From a virus: 64,000 bases of DNA. Where the stretch lies: positions 32,001-96,000 of the IMG/VR virus record IMGVR_UViG_3300002026_000045. One strand, written 5' to 3'. The notes under the pieces were generated by a model that saw only the letters and a program-made list of their open reading frames with translations, was not told where the DNA came from and did no database searches. The position numbers and the translations under genes were made by a program. Below, one piece after another: positions 4,753 to 53,669 of this stretch (position 1 is its first letter; every line of letters begins with the position of its first letter).

Positions 4753-6909
4753 TTATGACTCTTTTACTATACTAATAATCTCGCCACGATTGAGATTCTC
4801 TCCTGCCATTTTTGCTTCTGCATAGTCCCTTGCAGATACTGCTGCCTGCGTGTGATCAGCAAAATCTATAAACCATCTGCCCCATGGTCTCTGAGGTGGC
4901 TGTGCTGTTTGCTGCGGTGGTGCCGCTGGTTGTGGTTCATTTATACGATGTGGCACAACCTCAAATTCTTGTTGCACTACATTATGCCCATTGCTAGTCA
5001 ACCATCCAGCAGCCATGCGGTTTGCATCACGTTGGGTAGTTGGACCATTTAAAATATGTACTAAATTTCCTTGCTCGTCCATAATATCCCACGCATGCTC
5101 CCCTACATTTGTCAAATTAGGGGCTGTTGGTTCAATATATTTTTTTATTGCAATTGCCTTCATTGCATTGTCTGGGGCGTCAATGTCGCGTATCCCCCAT
5201 TCTTTACGGGCTACTATTTTCGCTTCATCAGCAGACGTTGCAACTACTTCAATGGAAGAAGCATGGCCAGCAATTGAAACTTTATACCAATATTTTTCAC
5301 CAGCCTCTGGGTTTCTTTCTGTTTTGCGCTGAAGTTGAACTTGTTTGACAAAACTGCGCAAAGCCGCAGCTGGCAATTCTCCAGCTGCATATTGAGCAAA
5401 ATATTTTATTGTGTCATCACCGCTGCTAGATGGCGCAAGCATTAAATATAATTTTTTTAAATATTCATTCCTTGATTTTTGTGGATCACATGCTGCATCT
5501 AACGCAACTACCATTCGAAGTAAGGTAGGCTCAATTTTATCATAAAACTTGCCAAGCCAATCATCCCCAGGGCTACGAAATTCAACATACCCTTCTTTAT
5601 TGTTAATACTGGTATATTTGTCAGTGCTGCCACTGTGAATTGCCCTACTAGCAAGTTTGTTTAGACCAGCCCGCATCTTGTCCATCATTGGCTGGGCCAA
5701 TTCAGGTCTCATTCTTGCATACCGTTTAACTTGATCCAACCCAGACTTGCAATATGTATTTGCTTCTCTCTCAAATTGTTCTAAAACGTATTGGTCCCCA
5801 AGCAAGATGGCAAGTTTAACATAATCTAAATTACTCTCGCTCATACCAGGTACACTTACATTTATGTGTAACCCAGTTGACGAGTTAGTGTAACAGCCCT
5901 GGCTATCTGCCCATGCTTTGACTTTCTTTAAGTCCGACAACATCTCTGGCAATGGAAGTGGAGGGCTAACAAATTCAACCCCACCATCACTTGAATCCTC
6001 AGGCTCATCTAAACTCGAGTCTGGCTCAACCACATACGAAACATCGTTACGTTTAGCGCCATGATATCTGTCACTTGACGCAACTGGACGCCCAATCATA
6101 CTCTCAAACTCTTTTGCAATGTCGTCAAATGACCTACTGCCGCCCCCACCACCTGAACTGTAGTGTGGCCAATCTATAGCAATCCAATCAGCGTCACACA
6201 CGTCAGTCATATTAACTAGTCCAACGTCTCTGAGCCAGTCTCGTTCTTCAGGATATGACCAATCTTCGCGGTAATCTTCTAACGCATAATCGTAAGTTCG
6301 ACCTTCAAGTTCCCATTCTTCCTCAACCATTTCTTCTAACTTAGCGTCGGCCGCGGAACACGCGGCTCTCCAATGTTTTTCATCGTCACTGTTGTAAGTT
6401 ACCTCTCCCGCGACGCGATTGTATTTTCTAGCATTGATTTGAATCCCTACTTTTTCAGCACGATTCTTCTCGTCATCACTTAGGCCCAAATCCTCTAATG
6501 CAATAGTTATTGCTTCATTTTCATCCCACAGCGAATTGTTTACTATATAGTCTCTGAGCGCGTCTTTCCCTTCATTTCTCCATTCTCTGTGAAATTCTTC
6601 GTCTGCCCATTCATAGTATCGCTCCTCTAACTTTTCTCTCATTCGTTGAATAGCATTTCCACTGTTCATACTTGTTTCGTCATTTGAGAAAAATTCAACT
6701 ATGTCGTCTATGCTGTTGGCACGTTCATCCATGTCATAATTTGGCTCGTACTCATCACCACCGTCATTGTCTGACTCAGTGTCTGGGACATACATCTCAA
6801 ATTCCATCCCAACATAGGCATCAATTGATGCAGCCATGCGTCGCAATGAGGCAGGCCCCATTGCGAGTTCGCTTAAAAGTTGTGGTTCTACAAATTGTTC
6901 TGCTCGCAT
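4753..6909 (-). CDS. Putative amidoligase (COOH-NH2 ligase type 2)
   Basis: GMEFE, PDSSL, EFVSPP, STGLHINV, KYTSIN, VEFRSPG motifs; variant leader MRAEQFVE..LLSE. Confidence 0.8.
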   Translation of the reverse strand: MRAEQFVEPQLLSELAMGPASLRRMAASIDAYVGMEFEMYVPDTESDNDGGDEYEPNYDMDERANSIDDIVEFFSNDETSMNSGNAIQRMREKLEERYYEWADEEFHREWRNEGKDALRDYIVNNSLWDENEAITIALEDLGLSDDEKNRAEKVGIQINARKYNRVAGEVTYNSDDEKHWRAACSAADAKLEEMVEEEWELEGRTYDYALEDYREDWSYPEERDWLRDVGLVNMTDVCDADWIAIDWPHYSSGGGGGSRSFDDIAKEFESMIGRPVASSDRYHGAKRNDVSYVVEPDSSLDEPEDSSDGGVEFVSPPLPLPEMLSDLKKVKAWADSQGCYTNSSTGLHINVSVPGMSESNLDYVKLAILLGDQYVLEQFEREANTYCKSGLDQVKRYARMRPELAQPMMDKMRAGLNKLASRAIHSGSTDKYTSINNKEGYVEFRSPGDDWLGKFYDKIEPTLLRMVVALDAACDPQKSRNEYLKKLYLMLAPSSSGDDTIKYFAQYAAGELPAAALRSFVKQVQLQRKTERNPEAGEKYWYKVSIAGHASSIEVVATSADEAKIVARKEWGIRDIDAPDNAMKAIAIKKYIEPTAPNLTNVGEHAWDIMDEQGNLVHILNGPTTQRDANRMAAGWLTSNGHNVVQQEFEVVPHRINEPQPAAPPQQTAQPPQRPWGRWFIDFADHTQAAVSARDYAEAKMAGENLNRGEIISIVKES

Positions 6910-31888: not shown

Positions 31889-32080
31889 TCACCCCAATGT
31901 AAATTTCCGTAAGTATTCGCTGGCGTCTGACACGTCTAAGTCCGCATCCCAAATCTCGTTGTCTTGCGCATCCTGGATTAAAAAATCAGTGCCTGGATGC
32001 GTGTTAGCAAAAGTCGGCACTTTGGCAATAAGCCCAATGGATATCAAATATCCAAGCAATTCTCTGTCTTTGTCATTCAT
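31889..32080 (-). CDS. Hypothetical protein
   Basis: GAGG RBS. Confidence 0.5.
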   Translation of the reverse strand: MNDKDRELLGYLISIGLIAKVPTFANTHPGTDFLIQDAQDNEIWDADLDVSDASEYLRKFTLG

Positions 32081-41038: not shown

Positions 41039-43252
41039 TTACGCTTCTTTTGCCACGGAGTCTACTAAATTGATGTAATCAGCGATTGTCTGTGTATGAT
41101 ATGTCATTGTATTGCTGCTAAGAATGCTTAGTAACGGATAATTTGACAGTACATGTTTAAATTCTTTAGTTAACTCATTTGTCACGTTGGTAACAGTAGT
41201 AAACAAATCTGTCGAATTATTTTTCTTATACCTAGACAAAAGCCAGCGCATAGCTGTTTCATCAACGTCTGATTTAACTGCACCAGTCAACTTAGCTAAG
41301 AACGAGCCGCAAACTCCATCTTGTGCAATAAGAAATGGGAGGACTGAACTATGATTCTTAATAATCCCGCACATTGCGTCAATTCGTAGTAGCGAGTTAA
41401 ATGCCATTTTGATAACGCTTTTGTCATCAATAGCAGCCAATCGTTTTTCAATTTCATATTCTAAGTTAATCCAATTTGGCAATTTTTTAACTGCTTCCAA
41501 ATCATTTTTACGGACTCCGTATATAGTATCTGTCAAAATTTTAGAAGAACGCAACTGGTCAGTCAACGTTGTCATATCACTGATATGAACTTTAGTAACT
41601 GGTGTAAATCCAGAAAGTGGCAAGTAGTAATATTTTGCACTACTGTCAAAGTCAGACACTGTCCCAGCGTCACGCCATACCATTTTATGACCACCGAGAC
41701 GGTTATGATATGACTGAGATTCATCTTTGCGTCGAGATTGTAAGATAGTTACGTTTTTTGCACGTTCAGCACCATCACGCTCACGCTTTTCAAGTTTGTC
41801 AGCAGTCAAAATGTGAGACTCCGGAGGAGTCATCAGCAATTTGAAAAAACTTTTCGTGTCAACAGGTTTCTTTTTATCTGCTGCATCAATGACATACACT
41901 GAATTATGATGACTACGTTGAGCAGCAATATCCTTGTTTGTCCGCCAGTGATGTTTGGCACGTGACAGAGCACCTACTTTTAACGTGTTAACAACAAAGT
42001 ATGTGTCCATACTTGGACTAATGTCATAAAATGTATCTGCTACTTTGCCCTGTGAATCATATGTATTTCGAGGGGAAATAGTTTTGCCAGTGGATGCGTT
42101 GTATATTTTAGAAAATGCACTCAACTTTATATTGTATTTTGACGCAAGAACCGCAACATCAAGTTTAAATGAGACATATGAGACATATGATGTCGAAAGA
42201 GTAGTACGAGTAATTAGAGGAAATTCAGTATCAACTATATATTTCGTGACTGCTGGCCGCCACAGAGCAGTATTTCTTTTACCGAATAAATAATGGGCAC
42301 GTTCCCACAGATTATCAATTTTATTTGCTTCGTCAGCAATATGCACAGCAAGTTGAGCGTTCAGTTGTTCCAACTTAGATTTAATTGCTTGCACAGTTTG
42401 CGGAATATAAGATAGCCCCTCCCGTGATGCTTGAAAATCAAGCTCACCAATGCCAAAGTTCATCTCCAACCCACAATCAAGCAATGCACGAAGTTCTCCC
42501 AGCGACTTGTCGCTTTGTGGAATTTCAATTGGGTACGCAATATTGCCCATAATTGCGGTACTTAGGTGGCCACCAATATGGCTTACGCCAGGAATAATAT
42601 TCTCTGTTTCGTAAGTACGTGTTCGAATCTCAAAATTGTTAACACCAGTGACAACTGGACGCAAAGAAAAATATTGATATACTGCTGATGCTTCTTGCTT
42701 AAACTTTCCGAAATCTGAATAATCGTTTACAGAAAACTTAACTTCAACTCCTGACGGCTCATCAGTCTTCCCATCAGTCATCAACGCGATGCTTGGCACA
42801 CCGCTTTCATTAATGAACGCTGTATAAATACCGCGAACGCCATCTTTGATAGCTGTTACAGTAAAATTGTCAGTGTATGAGAATGGAGATTTTGATCCAA
42901 GACCCAACGCACCAATGTATTCATTGCTGTCTGTTTTCGTAGATTCAAAATAGGTTGTGTAAATGTTAGTTACTTGATCATGTGACAACCCAGTGCCATA
43001 ATCACGGATTGAGAACCAGGGCTCGAGTTGGGATGGCAGATGAACGTCAAACGGTGTACCTTGCTTACCAGCTGCAATATGTGAGTCCACGGCATTGCAA
43101 CTTAGCTCACGCACAATTGCCTTGACCTTGTTAGCATACAGGCCAGAGCTTAGAATATTGAACGCTTTGGCAGAGTTACGAATACGGAATTCGCCAACTG
43201 CACCAACATTGGAAAGAATTGCTTCGTTTTGGGGAGTAGAGTTTAAAATCAT
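41039..43252 (-). CDS. rIIA: RIIA-like protein (GHKL ATPase N-terminus)
   Basis: LSSGLY.NK..AIVREL.CNAVDSH, IRDYGTG, STKTDSN..IG.LGLGSKSPFSY; upstream of rIIB. Confidence 0.92.
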   Translation of the reverse strand: MILNSTPQNEAILSNVGAVGEFRIRNSAKAFNILSSGLYANKVKAIVRELSCNAVDSHIAAGKQGTPFDVHLPSQLEPWFSIRDYGTGLSHDQVTNIYTTYFESTKTDSNEYIGALGLGSKSPFSYTDNFTVTAIKDGVRGIYTAFINESGVPSIALMTDGKTDEPSGVEVKFSVNDYSDFGKFKQEASAVYQYFSLRPVVTGVNNFEIRTRTYETENIIPGVSHIGGHLSTAIMGNIAYPIEIPQSDKSLGELRALLDCGLEMNFGIGELDFQASREGLSYIPQTVQAIKSKLEQLNAQLAVHIADEANKIDNLWERAHYLFGKRNTALWRPAVTKYIVDTEFPLITRTTLSTSYVSYVSFKLDVAVLASKYNIKLSAFSKIYNASTGKTISPRNTYDSQGKVADTFYDISPSMDTYFVVNTLKVGALSRAKHHWRTNKDIAAQRSHHNSVYVIDAADKKKPVDTKSFFKLLMTPPESHILTADKLEKRERDGAERAKNVTILQSRRKDESQSYHNRLGGHKMVWRDAGTVSDFDSSAKYYYLPLSGFTPVTKVHISDMTTLTDQLRSSKILTDTIYGVRKNDLEAVKKLPNWINLEYEIEKRLAAIDDKSVIKMAFNSLLRIDAMCGIIKNHSSVLPFLIAQDGVCGSFLAKLTGAVKSDVDETAMRWLLSRYKKNNSTDLFTTVTNVTNELTKEFKHVLSNYPLLSILSSNTMTYHTQTIADYINLVDSVAKEA

Positions 43253-48080: not shown

Positions 48081-49961
48081 TTAAATTTCGCACCCACCTG
48101 CTGCGCATGACAACATTTGGGCACCTTCAACATTGTCGGTTGCTTCTATAAATTCGTCCCACATAATGTCAGGCATTTGAGCAAGCAATGCATTGTATTT
48201 TTCTTCAGTTACTTCTTGATATGGTGCTTGGCGATAGCTGTGATCACTGTGCGGTAAGAAGGACACACCACCAATGTCATCAAAATTCTTATAAACCCAA
48301 GAACCCACTTCTAACCACTCTTTTTCTCTTACATATACAGTAATAGAGGGGTTATGCTCACACCAGTTCTTTTTGTACACCAAATAGTGCTCTAATTGCT
48401 CGATTGCTGTCATATCATTGCGAAAAACAGCAGTTTCTGGCGCTTTTTGTGGGAAAGAGAACACCCAAGTTGACTCAGGCTTCATTACATCGTCTTCACA
48501 CGGAACACCTGCGTCTTTAAGAAACTTGCCTAATGGATCCTTTTTATCTTGACGCACAGTACGAATATAATATTGCGAATAACGTGCATGAATGCCAGAT
48601 GCTGAGTCAACTAACTGCGACACAGTGCCTGATGGCTTAATTGTTGTAATGGCAACGGACTGGTTAATGCCTAATTTCTCTGCCCATTCCTTGTTAGTGT
48701 CAATTGCAACTTGGCGTAAAATGTTTAACCAATCTGCAAGTTTAACATTGCCCTCGCGACCACTCATTACAACGTGGTCCATAATACCAGTAAGCGACAC
48801 GCCCAACAATCTTTCTTCTTCGCAATTCTTTTTCCAAATGTTACGGATGTATTTAAAATCCACCAATGTAGCTTGGAATGTTCCAAGAATCGTAGCATAC
48901 TTAACTTTTTCTTTAAGACGCTCTAAAGAATCGCCGTTACGAATAACTACTTCGCTAAGATTGCAAAATTCATTTGGGCGCAATAAAATCTCGCCACATG
49001 GATTAGTGCCAAATTCAATACCTTCAATTTCACGACGTCCAGTAATTTTTGCTTGTTTATTTGCTGACACACGATTAAAAATTCCACGCTCACCAGACTT
49101 GCTTTCGTATAATGCCAACCATTCCTTCATGAACACGCCAATTTCTGGCTTTTCTGTGTATGCTACACTGTTGTTAGCAAGAGAACGATGAGCAAAATCT
49201 TCCCACCATTGGCCAGTTTTTGCTCCACGCATACGTTCATCTGACAAGTTAGACAACGAAATTAATGCACTACGACGAACACCGCCAACTACTACAATTT
49301 CTCCAATCTTGCACATAATGTCATGGCATTCAAGAGAATTTAGCTTACGGCCCGCTGCTTTTCTAATAACAGAGATCACAAACATAAACAAGTCGTTAAG
49401 TGGGATTGGGCCTGAGCTACGACCACCAAATGTTTTGAGTCTTGCACCAGCAGGGCGCAATTTAGACAAGTCCCAACGTGGAATTTTACCTTGATACAGC
49501 AAAGTAACTAATTCGTGTAATGATGTTGCCCACCCTAACTTGCTGTCTTTAACAAAAATTGTTGTGTCAGTTTCGTAAAAATCTTCAGCCACAATTGGTA
49601 GTTGGTTTACATATTGGCGTTCCACAGAAAACCCTAGCCCAGTGCCATTCATCAAAATGTACAATGCTTCGCTAAACGATTTAAGGTTGTCAATTGCAAT
49701 ATATGAACAATTATATCCAGAGATGTTGTCACGCTCTAACGCTGGTCCAGCAGTCATTAGTGACCGCATAGATGGCATAACTTCCATGTCTAAGATATTT
49801 GAGCGAATACCATTCCCCAACACTGATGCATAATCTGGGAATTTATGACTGTAAAAATCTATTAGTCGTTGAACTGTTTCATCCCAGTTTTCTCGTCTTG
49901 ATTTTTCATCAATAAACCTTGCATAACGTGACTTGTGAATGTATTTGCGATAATTGTCCAT
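48081..49961 (-). CDS. nrdJ: Ribonucleotide reductase class II (B12-dependent)
   Basis: MPSMR, YNCSY, GGVRRSALI, TNPCGEI, CNLSEV, KPSGT, C-terminal CAAGGCEI. Confidence 0.92.
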   Translation of the reverse strand: MDNYRKYIHKSRYARFIDEKSRRENWDETVQRLIDFYSHKFPDYASVLGNGIRSNILDMEVMPSMRSLMTAGPALERDNISGYNCSYIAIDNLKSFSEALYILMNGTGLGFSVERQYVNQLPIVAEDFYETDTTIFVKDSKLGWATSLHELVTLLYQGKIPRWDLSKLRPAGARLKTFGGRSSGPIPLNDLFMFVISVIRKAAGRKLNSLECHDIMCKIGEIVVVGGVRRSALISLSNLSDERMRGAKTGQWWEDFAHRSLANNSVAYTEKPEIGVFMKEWLALYESKSGERGIFNRVSANKQAKITGRREIEGIEFGTNPCGEILLRPNEFCNLSEVVIRNGDSLERLKEKVKYATILGTFQATLVDFKYIRNIWKKNCEEERLLGVSLTGIMDHVVMSGREGNVKLADWLNILRQVAIDTNKEWAEKLGINQSVAITTIKPSGTVSQLVDSASGIHARYSQYYIRTVRQDKKDPLGKFLKDAGVPCEDDVMKPESTWVFSFPQKAPETAVFRNDMTAIEQLEHYLVYKKNWCEHNPSITVYVREKEWLEVGSWVYKNFDDIGGVSFLPHSDHSYRQAPYQEVTEEKYNALLAQMPDIMWDEFIEATDNVEGAQMLSCAAGGCEI

Positions 49962-50052: not shown

Positions 50053-50502
50053 TTAGTATTTTCCTAATTGCAGATCGGAATCTGAATATGATTGAATGAC
50101 TTCTACCTCTGTATCAATCTGTGTTTTACTTATTACCTCGTCAAAGGTGTAATTAAGTATATATTTCTCATCGTCGATCGAGACTAAATTGTAATTTTCA
50201 AGTCCAGAACTTGCTTTTACTTTTAGAAGTTTAAATTTATGGCTTGCGCCATGTTTTGATAAATGAAGGGTATAGAGCATACCTAATGCTTTGGCTACAT
50301 CATCATAGTTATTGTCAGACAATAATTCCCATGGTGTCGGCCAATCTTTTGGTTCGCTATGATCCAAATAATGATTTATAAACGGAGCATAACTCCACAA
50401 GTGTACAGTTTTTGCAACTGCTTCGTCAAATGGAAGATCCCCAATCATTTTGCGAAAGGCCTTCCACTCTTTAAGACGATCGTCAGATCGTAAAGTCCAC
50501 AT
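50053..50502 (-). CDS. Conserved hypothetical late protein
   Basis: WPTPWELL..N.Y, ALGM.YTL. Confidence 0.65.
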   Translation of the reverse strand: MWTLRSDDRLKEWKAFRKMIGDLPFDEAVAKTVHLWSYAPFINHYLDHSEPKDWPTPWELLSDNNYDDVAKALGMLYTLHLSKHGASHKFKLLKVKASSGLENYNLVSIDDEKYILNYTFDEVISKTQIDTEVEVIQSYSDSDLQLGKY

Positions 50503-50552
50503 TTAAGATATGATTAAAATTGGTTAAAATTACCAAAACTTTGTGATATTAT

Positions 50553-50792
50553 TTACAAAGTAGGGGTTATGCTATTTGAAACAATTGATTCTGGCCCGTC
50601 GCCAGTGGAATTAGTCGCATGAACTGTAAATGTATACGAAGTTCCATTTGTTAATCCAGTGACTGTAATAGGTGATGCGGGTCCAGTGGCAGTAATTCCC
50701 TCAGGGTCACTTGTTACAGTGTAGCTAGTGACTACTGATCCGCCATCACTAAGTGGCGGATCAAATGAAACTGTAGACTGTTGACTAGCCAT
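50553..50792 (-). CDS. Fibronectin type III domain lacking strand A
   Basis: TVSFDPP..DGGS.VTSYTV...SPITVTGLTNGTSYTFTVHATN..G.GPES..SNSITP. Confidence 0.85.
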   Translation of the reverse strand: MASQQSTVSFDPPLSDGGSVVTSYTVTSDPEGITATGPASPITVTGLTNGTSYTFTVHATNSTGDGPESIVSNSITPTL

Positions 50793-50804
50793 AACTTAGC
50801 CTAG

Positions 50805-51095
50805 TTAAACTGCTACTACGTTAGTTGGTGCGCCTGGTACATCAGCAGTCGGAGTTACTGCATTAGATGGAGCAGATTCTGCACTGTTTCCAGCTGAGTT
50901 AGTTGCGTGGACTGTAAATGTGTATGATACACCGTTTGTTAATCCAGTCACAGTAATAGGGGATGCAGCGCCAGACATTGTCGTAGATGCAACTGTTGCG
51001 TTGCCCTCAAATGCTGATACTGTGTATTCTGTAATAGGGGATCCTCCATCATTCACTGGTGCGTCAAATGATACTGTTGCTTGTGCGTTTGCCAT
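50805..51095 (-). CDS. Fibronectin type III domain lacking N-terminal strand A, carrying a strand A at its C-terminus
   Basis: Starts ANAQATVSF; ends VPGAPTNVVAV; own TATAAATA and AAGGA RBS. Confidence 0.88.
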   Translation of the reverse strand: MANAQATVSFDAPVNDGGSPITEYTVSAFEGNATVASTTMSGAASPITVTGLTNGVSYTFTVHATNSAGNSAESAPSNAVTPTADVPGAPTNVVAV

Positions 51096-51139
51096 TGTAA
51101 TTTCCTTAAAATATTTATATAAAAAGTAACTGTTACTTT

Positions 51140-52969
51140 CTATACTGCTAACACGTTAGTAGGACTGTCAGGACGTCCTACTGAAATTGCCACTACATTC
51201 GTAGGGCTGTCTGGTCGGCTTATTGAAATAGCCACTACGTTAGTAGGAACGTCTGGCACTGCGATTGGCAGTGCAGTTGGTGCCCTATCACCTACTAAAG
51301 TTCTGCTAGTTAATTTTAGCACAGCATGCTTATGTAGTAACGTAGTTTTATATTTTAATTCTACCGTATTAGTATTTAGCGTCGGTAGTAAAGTAACCCC
51401 AACATCATTAGTTTCTACATAATCATCTGAAAAGATAACTGTTGATCCAATTGTAGAAATATGAATAGTGCCATTACGTTGCTCATCACCACGCAGAATT
51501 GAGTATTCTAAAATAGTAGGGTAGTCCGCAAAACCAACTACACTAGCTAACGTAGATGTAGATAAGTTGTCAGACAATTGAATGTCAACTCCACCAACTG
51601 AGTACTGTTTACCTAGCATAGTTCTGCCGTCTGACAGAGTTGCAAAACTTGCTCTACCGTTTAACTTAATCGCCGGAACAGTTGATGCAGCAGATCTGTC
51701 AACCATGTCGCCAATGCTATAGCAATTATTTCCACCTAAACTAACAATAGGAGTTACATCTACGTTTGTAGATAATCCCTTGCCAACATTTGTAAAAGTG
51801 TTAAATGCGCTTACAACGTGAGACACCCCACCATAAAAACTTGCCTCGCCATAGATTGCTTCAGCTGCAATATTAGAAAATGTTGATCCAGTTACTTTGA
51901 TTGAAGTTGGGAATGGAGCACCATCATTGCTTTGACCTAAATTTAACCCTCGATACAATCTATCAAACGAGCAATTAGCAAACGTAACATTCTCAACTTT
52001 GCTGTCAGCATAATATGCGTACACCTTACCAGAAAAATCACATTCTGTAAACACTAATCTTTCTGAAGAAACAGCATTGGTTTGTGACGACGCCATGCGA
52101 ACACAAGTTTGTGGATTTGGACTAGCACCAACTGACGTTGGACTAGCTGTATCAGATCCGTAAAAACCAACTCGGGTAAACCTTACATCAGTAACAGTGT
52201 TAAGATACATGATGTCTTTGTTGTTAATATTAACTAACGACAAATCTTCTATCTCTGCATACCCTGGCATTATTGCAGGTGGGCTACCAGAGCCAACTAT
52301 ATTTGAATCTATTGTAGTTGCGTTAACAAAATCGTAAGTAAACCCAGTATGCAACTTTGAATCACATGAACTGATCAGGCACGGTTGAGTAGAATCAACT
52401 TGAATCAAAAATGTCGAGTTTTTGCCATCACCTTTAAGGCGTACATACGGCATCAATCGTATGAAATCACCAAATATTAAATAAGTACCTGCAGGAATAT
52501 GTATTGTTCTGCGTGTTCTAGCTTCAGTGCCAAGTAACGATGCTTTATACAGCTCAATAATTGCACGGTTAATAGATCGAACTTCAAGAAGTCCATCACC
52601 TTCACCATTGCCTGATGTATCATGTAACTTGCTATCCCCTATCCCACCAAAATCACGTAAATTAGCAAAGTCATCAAACTTATCTTGCATTGACCGTGTA
52701 GTAGGAGACAACGTGCTTAGACCAGTCAGTGCAATGTAACCAGCAGCCAGTCCTTTAAACGTGTAAACACCACTTAGACTAAAAATATCGCTGTATTGAG
52801 TTAAGATTTCAGTATTACCAAGGCTTGGAGCACCTTCTTCCGTAGTACCATTGCCAATGTATAACTTTCGAGTATCTATTGCCCAGCCTAATTCAGCACT
52901 TGCTAACTGCGGTAGGTCTTCTTGTAGTCCTCTACGGTGTTGTATGCGTGAGATTTGAATTATCGCCAA
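51140..52969 (-). CDS. Virion structural protein with beta-helix (pectin-lyase-like) region
   Basis: QISRIQHRRG...LYIGNG N-terminus; DFGGIGD, IPAGTY, LKGDG; periodic beta-helix repeats. Confidence 0.75.
   Translation of the reverse strand: MAIIQISRIQHRRGLQEDLPQLASAELGWAIDTRKLYIGNGTTEEGAPSLGNTEILTQYSDIFSLSGVYTFKGLAAGYIALTGLSTLSPTTRSMQDKFDDFANLRDFGGIGDSKLHDTSGNGEGDGLLEVRSINRAIIELYKASLLGTEARTRRTIHIPAGTYLIFGDFIRLMPYVRLKGDGKNSTFLIQVDSTQPCLISSCDSKLHTGFTYDFVNATTIDSNIVGSGSPPAIMPGYAEIEDLSLVNINNKDIMYLNTVTDVRFTRVGFYGSDTASPTSVGASPNPQTCVRMASSQTNAVSSERLVFTECDFSGKVYAYYADSKVENVTFANCSFDRLYRGLNLGQSNDGAPFPTSIKVTGSTFSNIAAEAIYGEASFYGGVSHVVSAFNTFTNVGKGLSTNVDVTPIVSLGGNNCYSIGDMVDRSAASTVPAIKLNGRASFATLSDGRTMLGKQYSVGGVDIQLSDNLSTSTLASVVGFADYPTILEYSILRGDEQRNGTIHISTIGSTVIFSDDYVETNDVGVTLLPTLNTNTVELKYKTTLLHKHAVLKLTSRTLVGDRAPTALPIAVPDVPTNVVAISISRPDSPTNVVAISVGRPDSPTNVLAV
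51143..51259 (-). repeat. Three 14-aa (42-nt) FN3 strand-A repeats at C-terminus
   Basis: VPDVPTNVVAISIS / RPDSPTNVVAISVG / RPDSPTNVLAV*. Confidence 0.9.
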
Positions 52970-52988
52970 TTTGCTCTTCCTTGATCTA

Positions 52989-53669
52989 TTATGTATTTAT
53001 GCGGTAATATCTTTCTACTCGGTCCCACCATTGGTTAGTCCAGTACTCAAAATCAGCGCCCTCTACTACGAACTCTTGATATTCGCATGCCCTACTACAC
53101 ATTAACACCACGCCTTGCTGAATGTTGGTGCCATGTACATAGTTATGTGCTGCGGCGTAGGCCGCAAGTTGAATTTTGTAATCCTCAATCCATTCTTCTT
53201 TTTTAGGCTTGTTAGTTTGTTTAAAGTCTAAAATTGATTCCTTATTCTTCCACACACCTGCTAAGTCTGTAGTCCCTGCATACAATCCTGGATAATATAA
53301 TGGAAGTTCAGTGCCCCAAACTTCATTCATGTGCACTAACCCGTTTTGAATAATCTGCTGAGCCATTGGGTGTGCTATTTTTTGCACGTTGTTTGTGCCT
53401 GGAGGTTTTGCTTTACCTAAGCAATGCTCTTCTAGCATTTTGTGCATTACTGTGCCAACGCCTGCCGCTTCAGTGGTAATGACTTGAGCATTTGCATGCC
53501 CAACTCTATTGCGCCAATTCATTAACGCATCTATTTTGTCTTGAGGTTTAGTTTTATCGAGGATAGACGTCACACTAGGCAACTTGCGGCCATCCGGAGT
53601 TAAATATTTCCTCACTCCATCTTCATTTGCTCTAGACAGGGCCGCATATATGAATTTTTTAGTTACCAC
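52989..53669 (-). CDS. PD-(D/E)xK exonuclease (Cas4/RecB-like phage exonuclease)
   Basis: PSVTSIL, GT.MH..LE, AGTTD, ILDFKQT, QLAAY. Confidence 0.88.
   Translation of the reverse strand: MVTKKFIYAALSRANEDGVRKYLTPDGRKLPSVTSILDKTKPQDKIDALMNWRNRVGHANAQVITTEAAGVGTVMHKMLEEHCLGKAKPPGTNNVQKIAHPMAQQIIQNGLVHMNEVWGTELPLYYPGLYAGTTDLAGVWKNKESILDFKQTNKPKKEEWIEDYKIQLAAYAAAHNYVHGTNIQQGVVLMCSRACEYQEFVVEGADFEYWTNQWWDRVERYYRINT

Follow-up and report, generated by a model that had tools for sequence, protein, structure and literature searches.

The window analyzed here, a 64,000-nucleotide stretch (positions 32,001 to 96,000) of the 104-kb IMG/VR virus record IMGVR_UViG_3300002026_000045 from a T4-like phage, contains three consecutive genes on its minus strand, hereafter anchor, extender, and cap, among which fibronectin type III (FN3) domains are divided; the parts and junctions of these three genes described below lie on the same strand. 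The anchor gene (51140–52969) encodes 609 amino acids (aa), comprising an Mtd_N domain, a beta-helix body, a C-terminal beta-sandwich, and a tail of FN3 A strands. The extender gene (50805–51095) encodes 96 aa, namely FN3 strands B to G followed by a C-terminal A strand, and the cap gene (50553–50792) encodes 79 aa with strands B to G and no such C-terminal strand. We refer to an A strand detached from its domain as a plug, and to an FN3 domain made without strand A as a socket. Both extender and cap are small, cysteine-free proteins.

The ends of the three proteins are those described in the original prediction, which was made from the sequence alone. The anchor terminates in three tandem orphan A strands, a tail or 'rope' (51143–51259) whose units VPDVPTNVVAISIS, RPDSPTNVVAISVG, and RPDSPTNVLAV occupy residues 571–584, 585–598, and 599–609 and repeat with a 14-residue period. 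Repeats 2 and 3 show six synonymous and two non-synonymous codon differences among 11, and this mostly synonymous divergence indicates that the repeats are old and constrained at the peptide level. The extender begins at strand B (MANAQATVSF) and finishes in a new A strand, DVPGAPTNVVAV / VPGAPTNVVAV, which forms its plug (residues 85–96; 50808–50843). The cap likewise begins at strand B (MASQQSTVSF) and finishes ...ITPTL, with the A strand absent. Extender and cap score 49.7 and 47.5 bits, respectively, against the Pfam family fn3 (PF00041; cut-off 25), with alignments that span profile positions 15–83 and 14–81 of 84, so that strand A is missing from both N-termini. Since fused relatives run ...VPGAPTNVTAVAGNAQATVSF... 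through the cut point, these alignment starts put the cut precisely in the A–B turn. Neither protein holds a complete seven-strand FN3 domain, in the order A to G, within one chain; in the extender, the A strand is located at the C-terminus.

The same division recurs in relatives. Searches with the extender return many proteins of about 90 aa that align end to end at 60–75% identity, and at least 27 metagenomic clusters (90% identity) of 87–96 aa start with M-x-x-Q-x-A-x-VSF and end in the ...VPGAPTNVVAV plug. The question raised at the outset, whether relatives keep the same split, is thereby answered in the affirmative. Within the extender family, plug residues P87, A89, P90, T91, and A95 are at least 90% conserved, equal to positions in the core and a level that a vestigial tail would not be expected to show. 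Cap-type proteins recur as well, for instance in locus L001 (77 aa; 5147–5380 of that locus) and in P0101 (85 aa). These comparisons, which draw on sequence, support the view that the A/B split is not only conserved but under selection.

The anchor is best explained as a tailspike-like protein. Residues 9–43 (52841–52945) match Mtd_N (Pfam PF18454, E 4e-8, 33.4 bits against a cut-off of 26.3) and are the likely particle-attachment end; a match to Pect-lyase_RHGA_epim falls below its cut-off (22 versus 27 bits). The AlphaFold2 (AF2) monomer model, with a mean predicted local distance difference test (pLDDT) score of 78, consists of a long beta-helix, a C-terminal beta-sandwich that reaches residue 558, and a disordered tail. 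Its parallel beta-helix body (about residues 150–420; 51710–52522) appears as a strand ladder with pLDDT of about 85–96. The top Foldseek matches of the model in the PDB are the tailspikes 6c72 (E 1e-10), 8oq0, and 6f7k, with E-values of 1e-10 to 1e-8 and a probability of 1.0, at low global template modeling (TM) scores of 0.26–0.32. A right-handed parallel beta-helix together with an N-terminal particle-binding domain marks a tailspike, and the anchor has both according to AF2, Foldseek, and the Mtd_N match. The earlier claim that the anchor is a virion protein is an inference; it now rests on the Mtd_N match and the tailspike-like beta-helix model. By analogy, the anchor is probably a homotrimer.

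The anchor family is large, with 1713 matches at E ≤1e-10 among 8000 candidates scored. About 110 of the best 120 relatives terminate one residue past a conserved ...SRTL, and about 10 append a proline-rich linker and one to five plugs. One of the tailed relatives, P0122 (634 aa, with a body 76% identical to that of the anchor), has a tail of four or five variant plugs (VP[YF]PPTQVIATLNAT) that repeat every 15 residues. This tail is far more diverged than the body, a hint that it co-evolves with sockets not seen here.

To relate tails to FN3 genes, we scanned 77 complete anchor loci of IMG/VR together with their 3-kb flanks. Neither a plug tail nor an FN3 match is present at 76 of them. The single tailed locus, L001, has four plugs, followed 15 nt downstream by one 77-aa FN3 protein that lacks both strand A and a plug; at L002 and L003, whose distance from the window is similar to that of L001, both the tail and the FN3 genes are lacking. 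Additionally, five pairs of a tailed anchor and an extender have identical longest-contig sizes (4537, 145207, 400338, 9265, and 25846), as does one extender–cap pair (1788), which suggests that the members of these pairs share contigs.

Broader searches recovered mainly undivided domains. FN3 scans of IMG/VR (L007–L086 and most of L132–L211) returned ordinary fused FN3 domains, with only six open reading frames (ORFs) starting at strand B, and a protein search for longer relatives returned mainly giant multi-FN3 proteins, 3 of the 120 listed matches starting at strand B. Scanning for APTN[VI]VAx-stop yielded one true locus in IMG/VR (L089), one in the JGI metagenomes (L096), and none in genome_contigs. 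Among INPHARED phages there is no DNA match to the window and no anchor relative at E 1e-8, and the extender matches only ordinary fused FN3 domains, at no more than 45% identity. A locus with seemingly split FN3 arrays in a Gracilibacteria metagenome-assembled genome (L100) was set aside, its splits being apparent only and caused by TGA read as stop. This lineage is known to recode TGA, and searches for split domains must therefore watch for such recoding.

Extenders also stand ahead of other proteins. In L133/L089, a 90-aa extender is followed by TAA TAG and then by a 1518-aa fiber protein that starts at strand B, and the same 18-kb contig as L133 encodes a 226-aa fiber-locus protein with an internal orphan plug. 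In L096, the extender precedes a 230-aa protein with a strand-A-less FN3 domain at the end where its 226-aa homolog bears the plug. L132 has an extender, then a 105-aa strand-A-less FN3 protein and a 1136-aa fiber protein. At L176 (4594–7622, plus strand), a 136-aa protein ends in the plug VPDAPTGVHAA, and its TGA overlaps the ATG (ATGA) of an 873-aa protein with five FN3 domains that starts at strand B; the locus may be a further split joint or the product of a one-base frameshift or error. The plug-pattern search of the L176 record was empty, as VPDAPTGVHAA, found by eye, falls outside the pattern.

Two side observations concern similar proteins. L127 (990–1670, minus strand) and L096 (434–1126, plus strand) encode homologous fiber-locus proteins with IGLPSISAG-type repeats, one of which has an orphan plug near the N-terminus and the other a strand-A-less FN3 domain; judged by sequence, the pattern resembles an exchange of plug and socket between the two lineages. 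L141 (4753–8858, plus strand) has an 80-aa ORF with an internal plug, TVPGPPTNVIATL, followed by a 1288-aa protein with nine FN3 domains that opens at strand B and uses GTG as its start codon.

Structure models bear on how the two halves of a domain might meet. In the AF2 monomer of the extender, the FN3 core forms without strand A at a pLDDT of 76.6, and residues 81–96 are unstructured, with pLDDT dropping from 61 to 43. Modeling of extender and cap together, a check that had been proposed along with the original prediction, seats the plug at the strand A position with an interaction prediction score from aligned errors (ipSAE) of 0.66, versus 0.00 for the best of three controls. In calibration, 58 of 80 solved complexes scored at or above this mark, as did 2 of 110 mismatched pairs; these counts hold only roughly for the present model, which was built with its own alignments. 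Three runs share at least 95% of contacts, with partner pLDDT of at least 85. Extender residues 84–96 contact cap residues 6–19 and 53–75 in an antiparallel register (95:8, 93:9–10, 90:11), and the modeled plug lies against cap strand B, at what would be the strand A site of a whole FN3 domain.

The conserved split, its co-occurrence with plug tails, and the geometry of the model lend partial support to the proposal that split FN3 domains assemble by donor-strand complementation. Together, sequences and models make complementation in trans, in our judgment, the probable means by which separate FN3 beads are attached to the tailspike at its distal end. In the arrangement that we infer, which extends to binding, the trimeric state, virion location, the order and number of beads, and function, the anchor would attach to the particle through its N-terminal Mtd_N domain and carry at its C-terminus a flexible rope of three plugs, with extender and cap as the sockets. 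A plug from another chain, antiparallel to strand B, would complete a socket and produce a normal FN3 domain from two polypeptides. The 14-residue spacing would fit one bead per plug, from which a head-to-tail stack of bound beads is expected, like that of ordinary FN3 arrays. The extender would supply a plug of its own for one or more further beads, and the cap, having none, would end the chain. Several beads could be gained by two routes: more plugs on the rope with cap-type beads only, as in L001, or a single plug with a plug-bearing extender, as in P0124, P0136, and P0140, provided that the inferred contigs are right; the window would combine both. The beads, on this sequence-based reading, would probably extend the reach of the spike or add weak adhesion at its distal end.

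Several points weigh against trans complementation. The modeled chains are halves of a split known fold, and the favorable score may reflect memory of the FN3 fold. The extender core is modeled to fold with fair confidence without strand A, so that the need for a plug is itself a prediction. In the L132 record (139 kb, about 52% complete), the plug-pattern search finds only the extender's own plug and none for its socket. Equal longest-contig sizes suggest the same contig, not adjacency. Finally, the window and L001 may share a single origin, in which case the co-occurrence table counts one event.

The strongest rival is gene fission without a joint, by which an ancestral fused FN3 array was cut by stops and restarts, the strand-A-less domains now act alone in decoration or adhesion, and the tails are leftovers. 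Four of seven junctions keep frame (spacers of 12, 15, 3, and 18 nt), as expected after in-frame fission, and the fair confidence of the extender core without strand A fits domains that stand alone. Such remnants would be expected to decay, however, whereas conservation of the plug residues is at least 90% over no fewer than 27 clusters, anchors can have as many as five plugs, with divergence at synonymous sites, and at the IMG/VR loci scanned, tails are missing wherever FN3 genes are. We therefore regard fission without a joint as unlikely.

A second alternative treats the extender as a self-complementing circular permutant, a closed monomer in which its own A strand folds onto its own strand B. 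A full set of seven strands, in permuted order, is indeed present in the extender. The stretch between strand G and the plug is only about three residues long, however, which equals the normal inter-domain linker of tandem arrays. In the FN3 topology, strand A must start at the opposite pole of the domain and, by this topology, the plug cannot reach its own socket. The AF2 monomer leaves residues 81–96 unstructured. As the original prediction had pointed out in disfavoring this alternative, it would also leave the orphan anchor plugs and the plug-less cap unexplained; with the monomer model and the linker length added, the permutant has become very improbable.

The junctions speak to a third possibility, that readthrough or frameshifting yields one fused anchor–FN3–FN3 protein and the split is only apparent. 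As first described, the anchor–extender junction is 44 nt and out of frame, and the extender–cap junction (50793–50804; TAA CTA GGC TAA GTT ATG) is 12 nt and in frame, with a second TAA stop and an AGG Shine-Dalgarno-like triplet. Recoding would find some encouragement in this second junction, in the extender frame being open for 60 nt upstream of its ATG, into the last anchor codons, and in an AU-rich 13-bp hairpin across the anchor stop codon (51117–51145) that folds at −9.9 kcal/mol (z −2.54; matched by 1 of 200 shuffled sequences). Against it, each gene has its own ATG and Shine-Dalgarno-like motif, and the absence of a slippery heptamer near the anchor stop, noted at the outset, was upheld. 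The six spaced junctions found in the window and in relatives (44, 12, 15, 3, 8, and 18 nt) vary in spacer and frame, with those of 44 and 8 nt out of frame and the ATGA overlap in addition, and tandem in-frame stops at three junctions (the window extender–cap junction, L133, and L132) would demand readthrough of two or more stops. Inconsistent frames and reinforced termination argue against recoding, which we give very little chance, and for separate chains.

That an assembly or sequencing artifact created the stops hardly deserves consideration, as the same gene ends recur in many independent assemblies and contigs from three further samples match perfectly across both junctions. Four runs from a single metagenome study of microbial mats contain the region 50400–53000, all with identical sequence, and no RNA dataset is listed as containing it. 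In Logan contigs from the three samples besides the likely source, there are zero differences or gaps across both junctions, which single contigs bridge (X2 spans 50571–52081 and X3 spans 50400–51259); the continuous ORF in reads or relatives that would have spoken against the split is not seen in these contigs.

The extender had been credited with its own TATAAATA and Shine-Dalgarno sequence, and both are present (51103–51119), with TATAAATA at 51112–51119 and AAGGA at 51103–51107. Seven copies of TATAAATA occur in the window versus 5.3 expected, that is, no enrichment, and a function as a late promoter is a guess from sequence. Sigma-70 and terminator scans found nothing beyond chance, and the hairpin at the anchor stop, possibly a weak terminator or stability element, was not called as a terminator.

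A more far-reaching version of trans complementation would have the extender polymerize on itself. Every anchor plug, of which there are three per chain and nine per trimer, would then nucleate a non-covalent FN3 filament, chaperone-free and in the cytoplasm, that grows through C-terminal donor strands until a cap binds, with the extender:cap ratio setting length and branching. We give self-polymerization a low probability, and a fiber length governed by the extender:cap ratio, as originally proposed, is a hypothesis with about the same. L001, with four plugs and a cap-type gene only, indicates that a rope threading beads would work without any polymer.

Strand donation between subunits has several known forms. 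In chaperone-usher pili (Fim, Pap), an incomplete immunoglobulin (Ig)-like subunit is completed by a strand of the next subunit, and terminator subunits exist. There, the C-terminal G strand is missing and the donor is N-terminal, whereas in the window the N-terminal A strand is missing and the donor is C-terminal. Such pili need a periplasmic chaperone and an usher, neither of which applies to the window system; no signal peptide and no chaperone or usher genes were found alongside the three genes, and the socket proteins begin directly at strand B. Closer in polarity are the type V pili of Bacteroidota (FimA, Mfa1), in which a C-terminal donor strand replaces the N-terminal strand of the next subunit to form non-covalent head-to-tail chains, ended by a subunit unable to continue (PMC13655056). 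Type V pilins are two-domain, self-complemented lipoproteins from which an extracellular protease removes the N-terminal anchor strand (PMC13655056). The proposed joint has the same polarity, which in the window is seen only in the model; it differs in that the N-terminal strand is never encoded, the fold is a single-domain FN3, there is no signal peptide, and assembly would be cytoplasmic. With no N-terminal strand or lipobox, the window proteins lack the lipoprotein character, cleaved anchor strand, and two-domain fold that define type V pilins.

Phage structures offer further parallels. The podophages GP4, VP1, and A1002 have a rope with tandem docking segments that binds separately encoded subunits by beta-sheet augmentation, holding 5 dimers in GP4 and 11 in A1002 (PMC13730344). 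An anchor tail with one to five plugs resembles this rope, although docking in the window is predicted; the podophage beads are dimers of 140–171-aa fiber proteins, not strand-lacking FN3 domains, and none has its own plug. We found no homology to gp80-type subunits or to gp77 (Pfam Gp77, 20.7 and 14.1 bits against a cut-off of 27). In the baseplate tripod of the Lactococcus phage Tuc2009, a C-terminal extension of BppU completes a beta-sheet of BppA, and the composite resembles a titin Ig domain (PMC4742702). As in our proposal, one Ig-like domain is made from two chains, here in a solved structure; BppU donates a two-strand hairpin at a single joint, however, with no tandem plugs, self-propagating subunit, cap, or FN3 A/B cut. 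Sheaths of contractile tails and injection systems donate N- and C-terminal strands to neighboring subunits (PMC13266070), but they form a helical mesh from one protein type and not a modular joint of fiber proteins. According to the original prediction, no such system was known to have been described, a statement that needs softening. In the literature on phage fiber strand complementation we found no paper on an FN3 domain split at the A/B turn as a joint, or on a plug-bearing extender with a cap, which, as coverage was incomplete, is weak evidence of novelty, and parts of the scheme are foreshadowed by Tuc2009, by GP4, VP1, and A1002, and by the type V pili.

The cassette is flanked by an exonuclease gene (52989–53669) on one side and, on the other, by a 149-aa phage gene (50053–50502, minus strand) and an ORF resembling ribonucleotide reductase (48081–49961); farther away lies a homolog of RIIA (41039–43252; PHROG E 3e-128). 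The 149-aa gene has no Pfam or PHROG match and is a conserved downstream neighbor of the anchor in about 70 related loci; its product may act as a partner of the tailspike-like anchor or help to assemble it. In both the window and L001, the FN3 genes stand between the anchor and this gene, so that tail and FN3 cassette together resemble an insertion into an older gene pair. A role for the 149-aa gene as a helper specific to the split was ruled out, since about 70 loci without FN3 genes have it downstream of the anchor as well. In L002 (5726–8556, plus strand), the ribonucleotide reductase after the anchor is spread over two ORFs, the first ending in an intein-like N part (..NLCLTGNT..) and the second beginning ..VLVHNCQEI..; from its sequence, this looks like an intein-interrupted or split-intein gene.

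If binding is confirmed, the system would be a natural phage counterpart of engineered split-domain tags, in which a plug of 10–14 residues and a socket of 80 residues snap separately encoded fiber parts together, and plug and socket could serve as orthogonal protein connectors. It would also provide a rule for annotation, by which a P-x-x-P-T-N-V-V-A end near an M-A-x-Q-x-A-x-V-S-F start denotes partners of one fiber. For the phage, one 90-codon gene would supply many beads, FN3 arrays would be built without recombination-prone DNA repeats, and fibers would be lengthened or re-tipped by swapping small cassettes instead of by recombination inside large genes. Donor-strand assembly is known from pili, TasA, and archaeal threads. 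Confirmed binding would bring it into virus particles without chaperone, usher, or protease and, if the extender does polymerize on itself, in the form of a pilus-like polymer on the virus particle.

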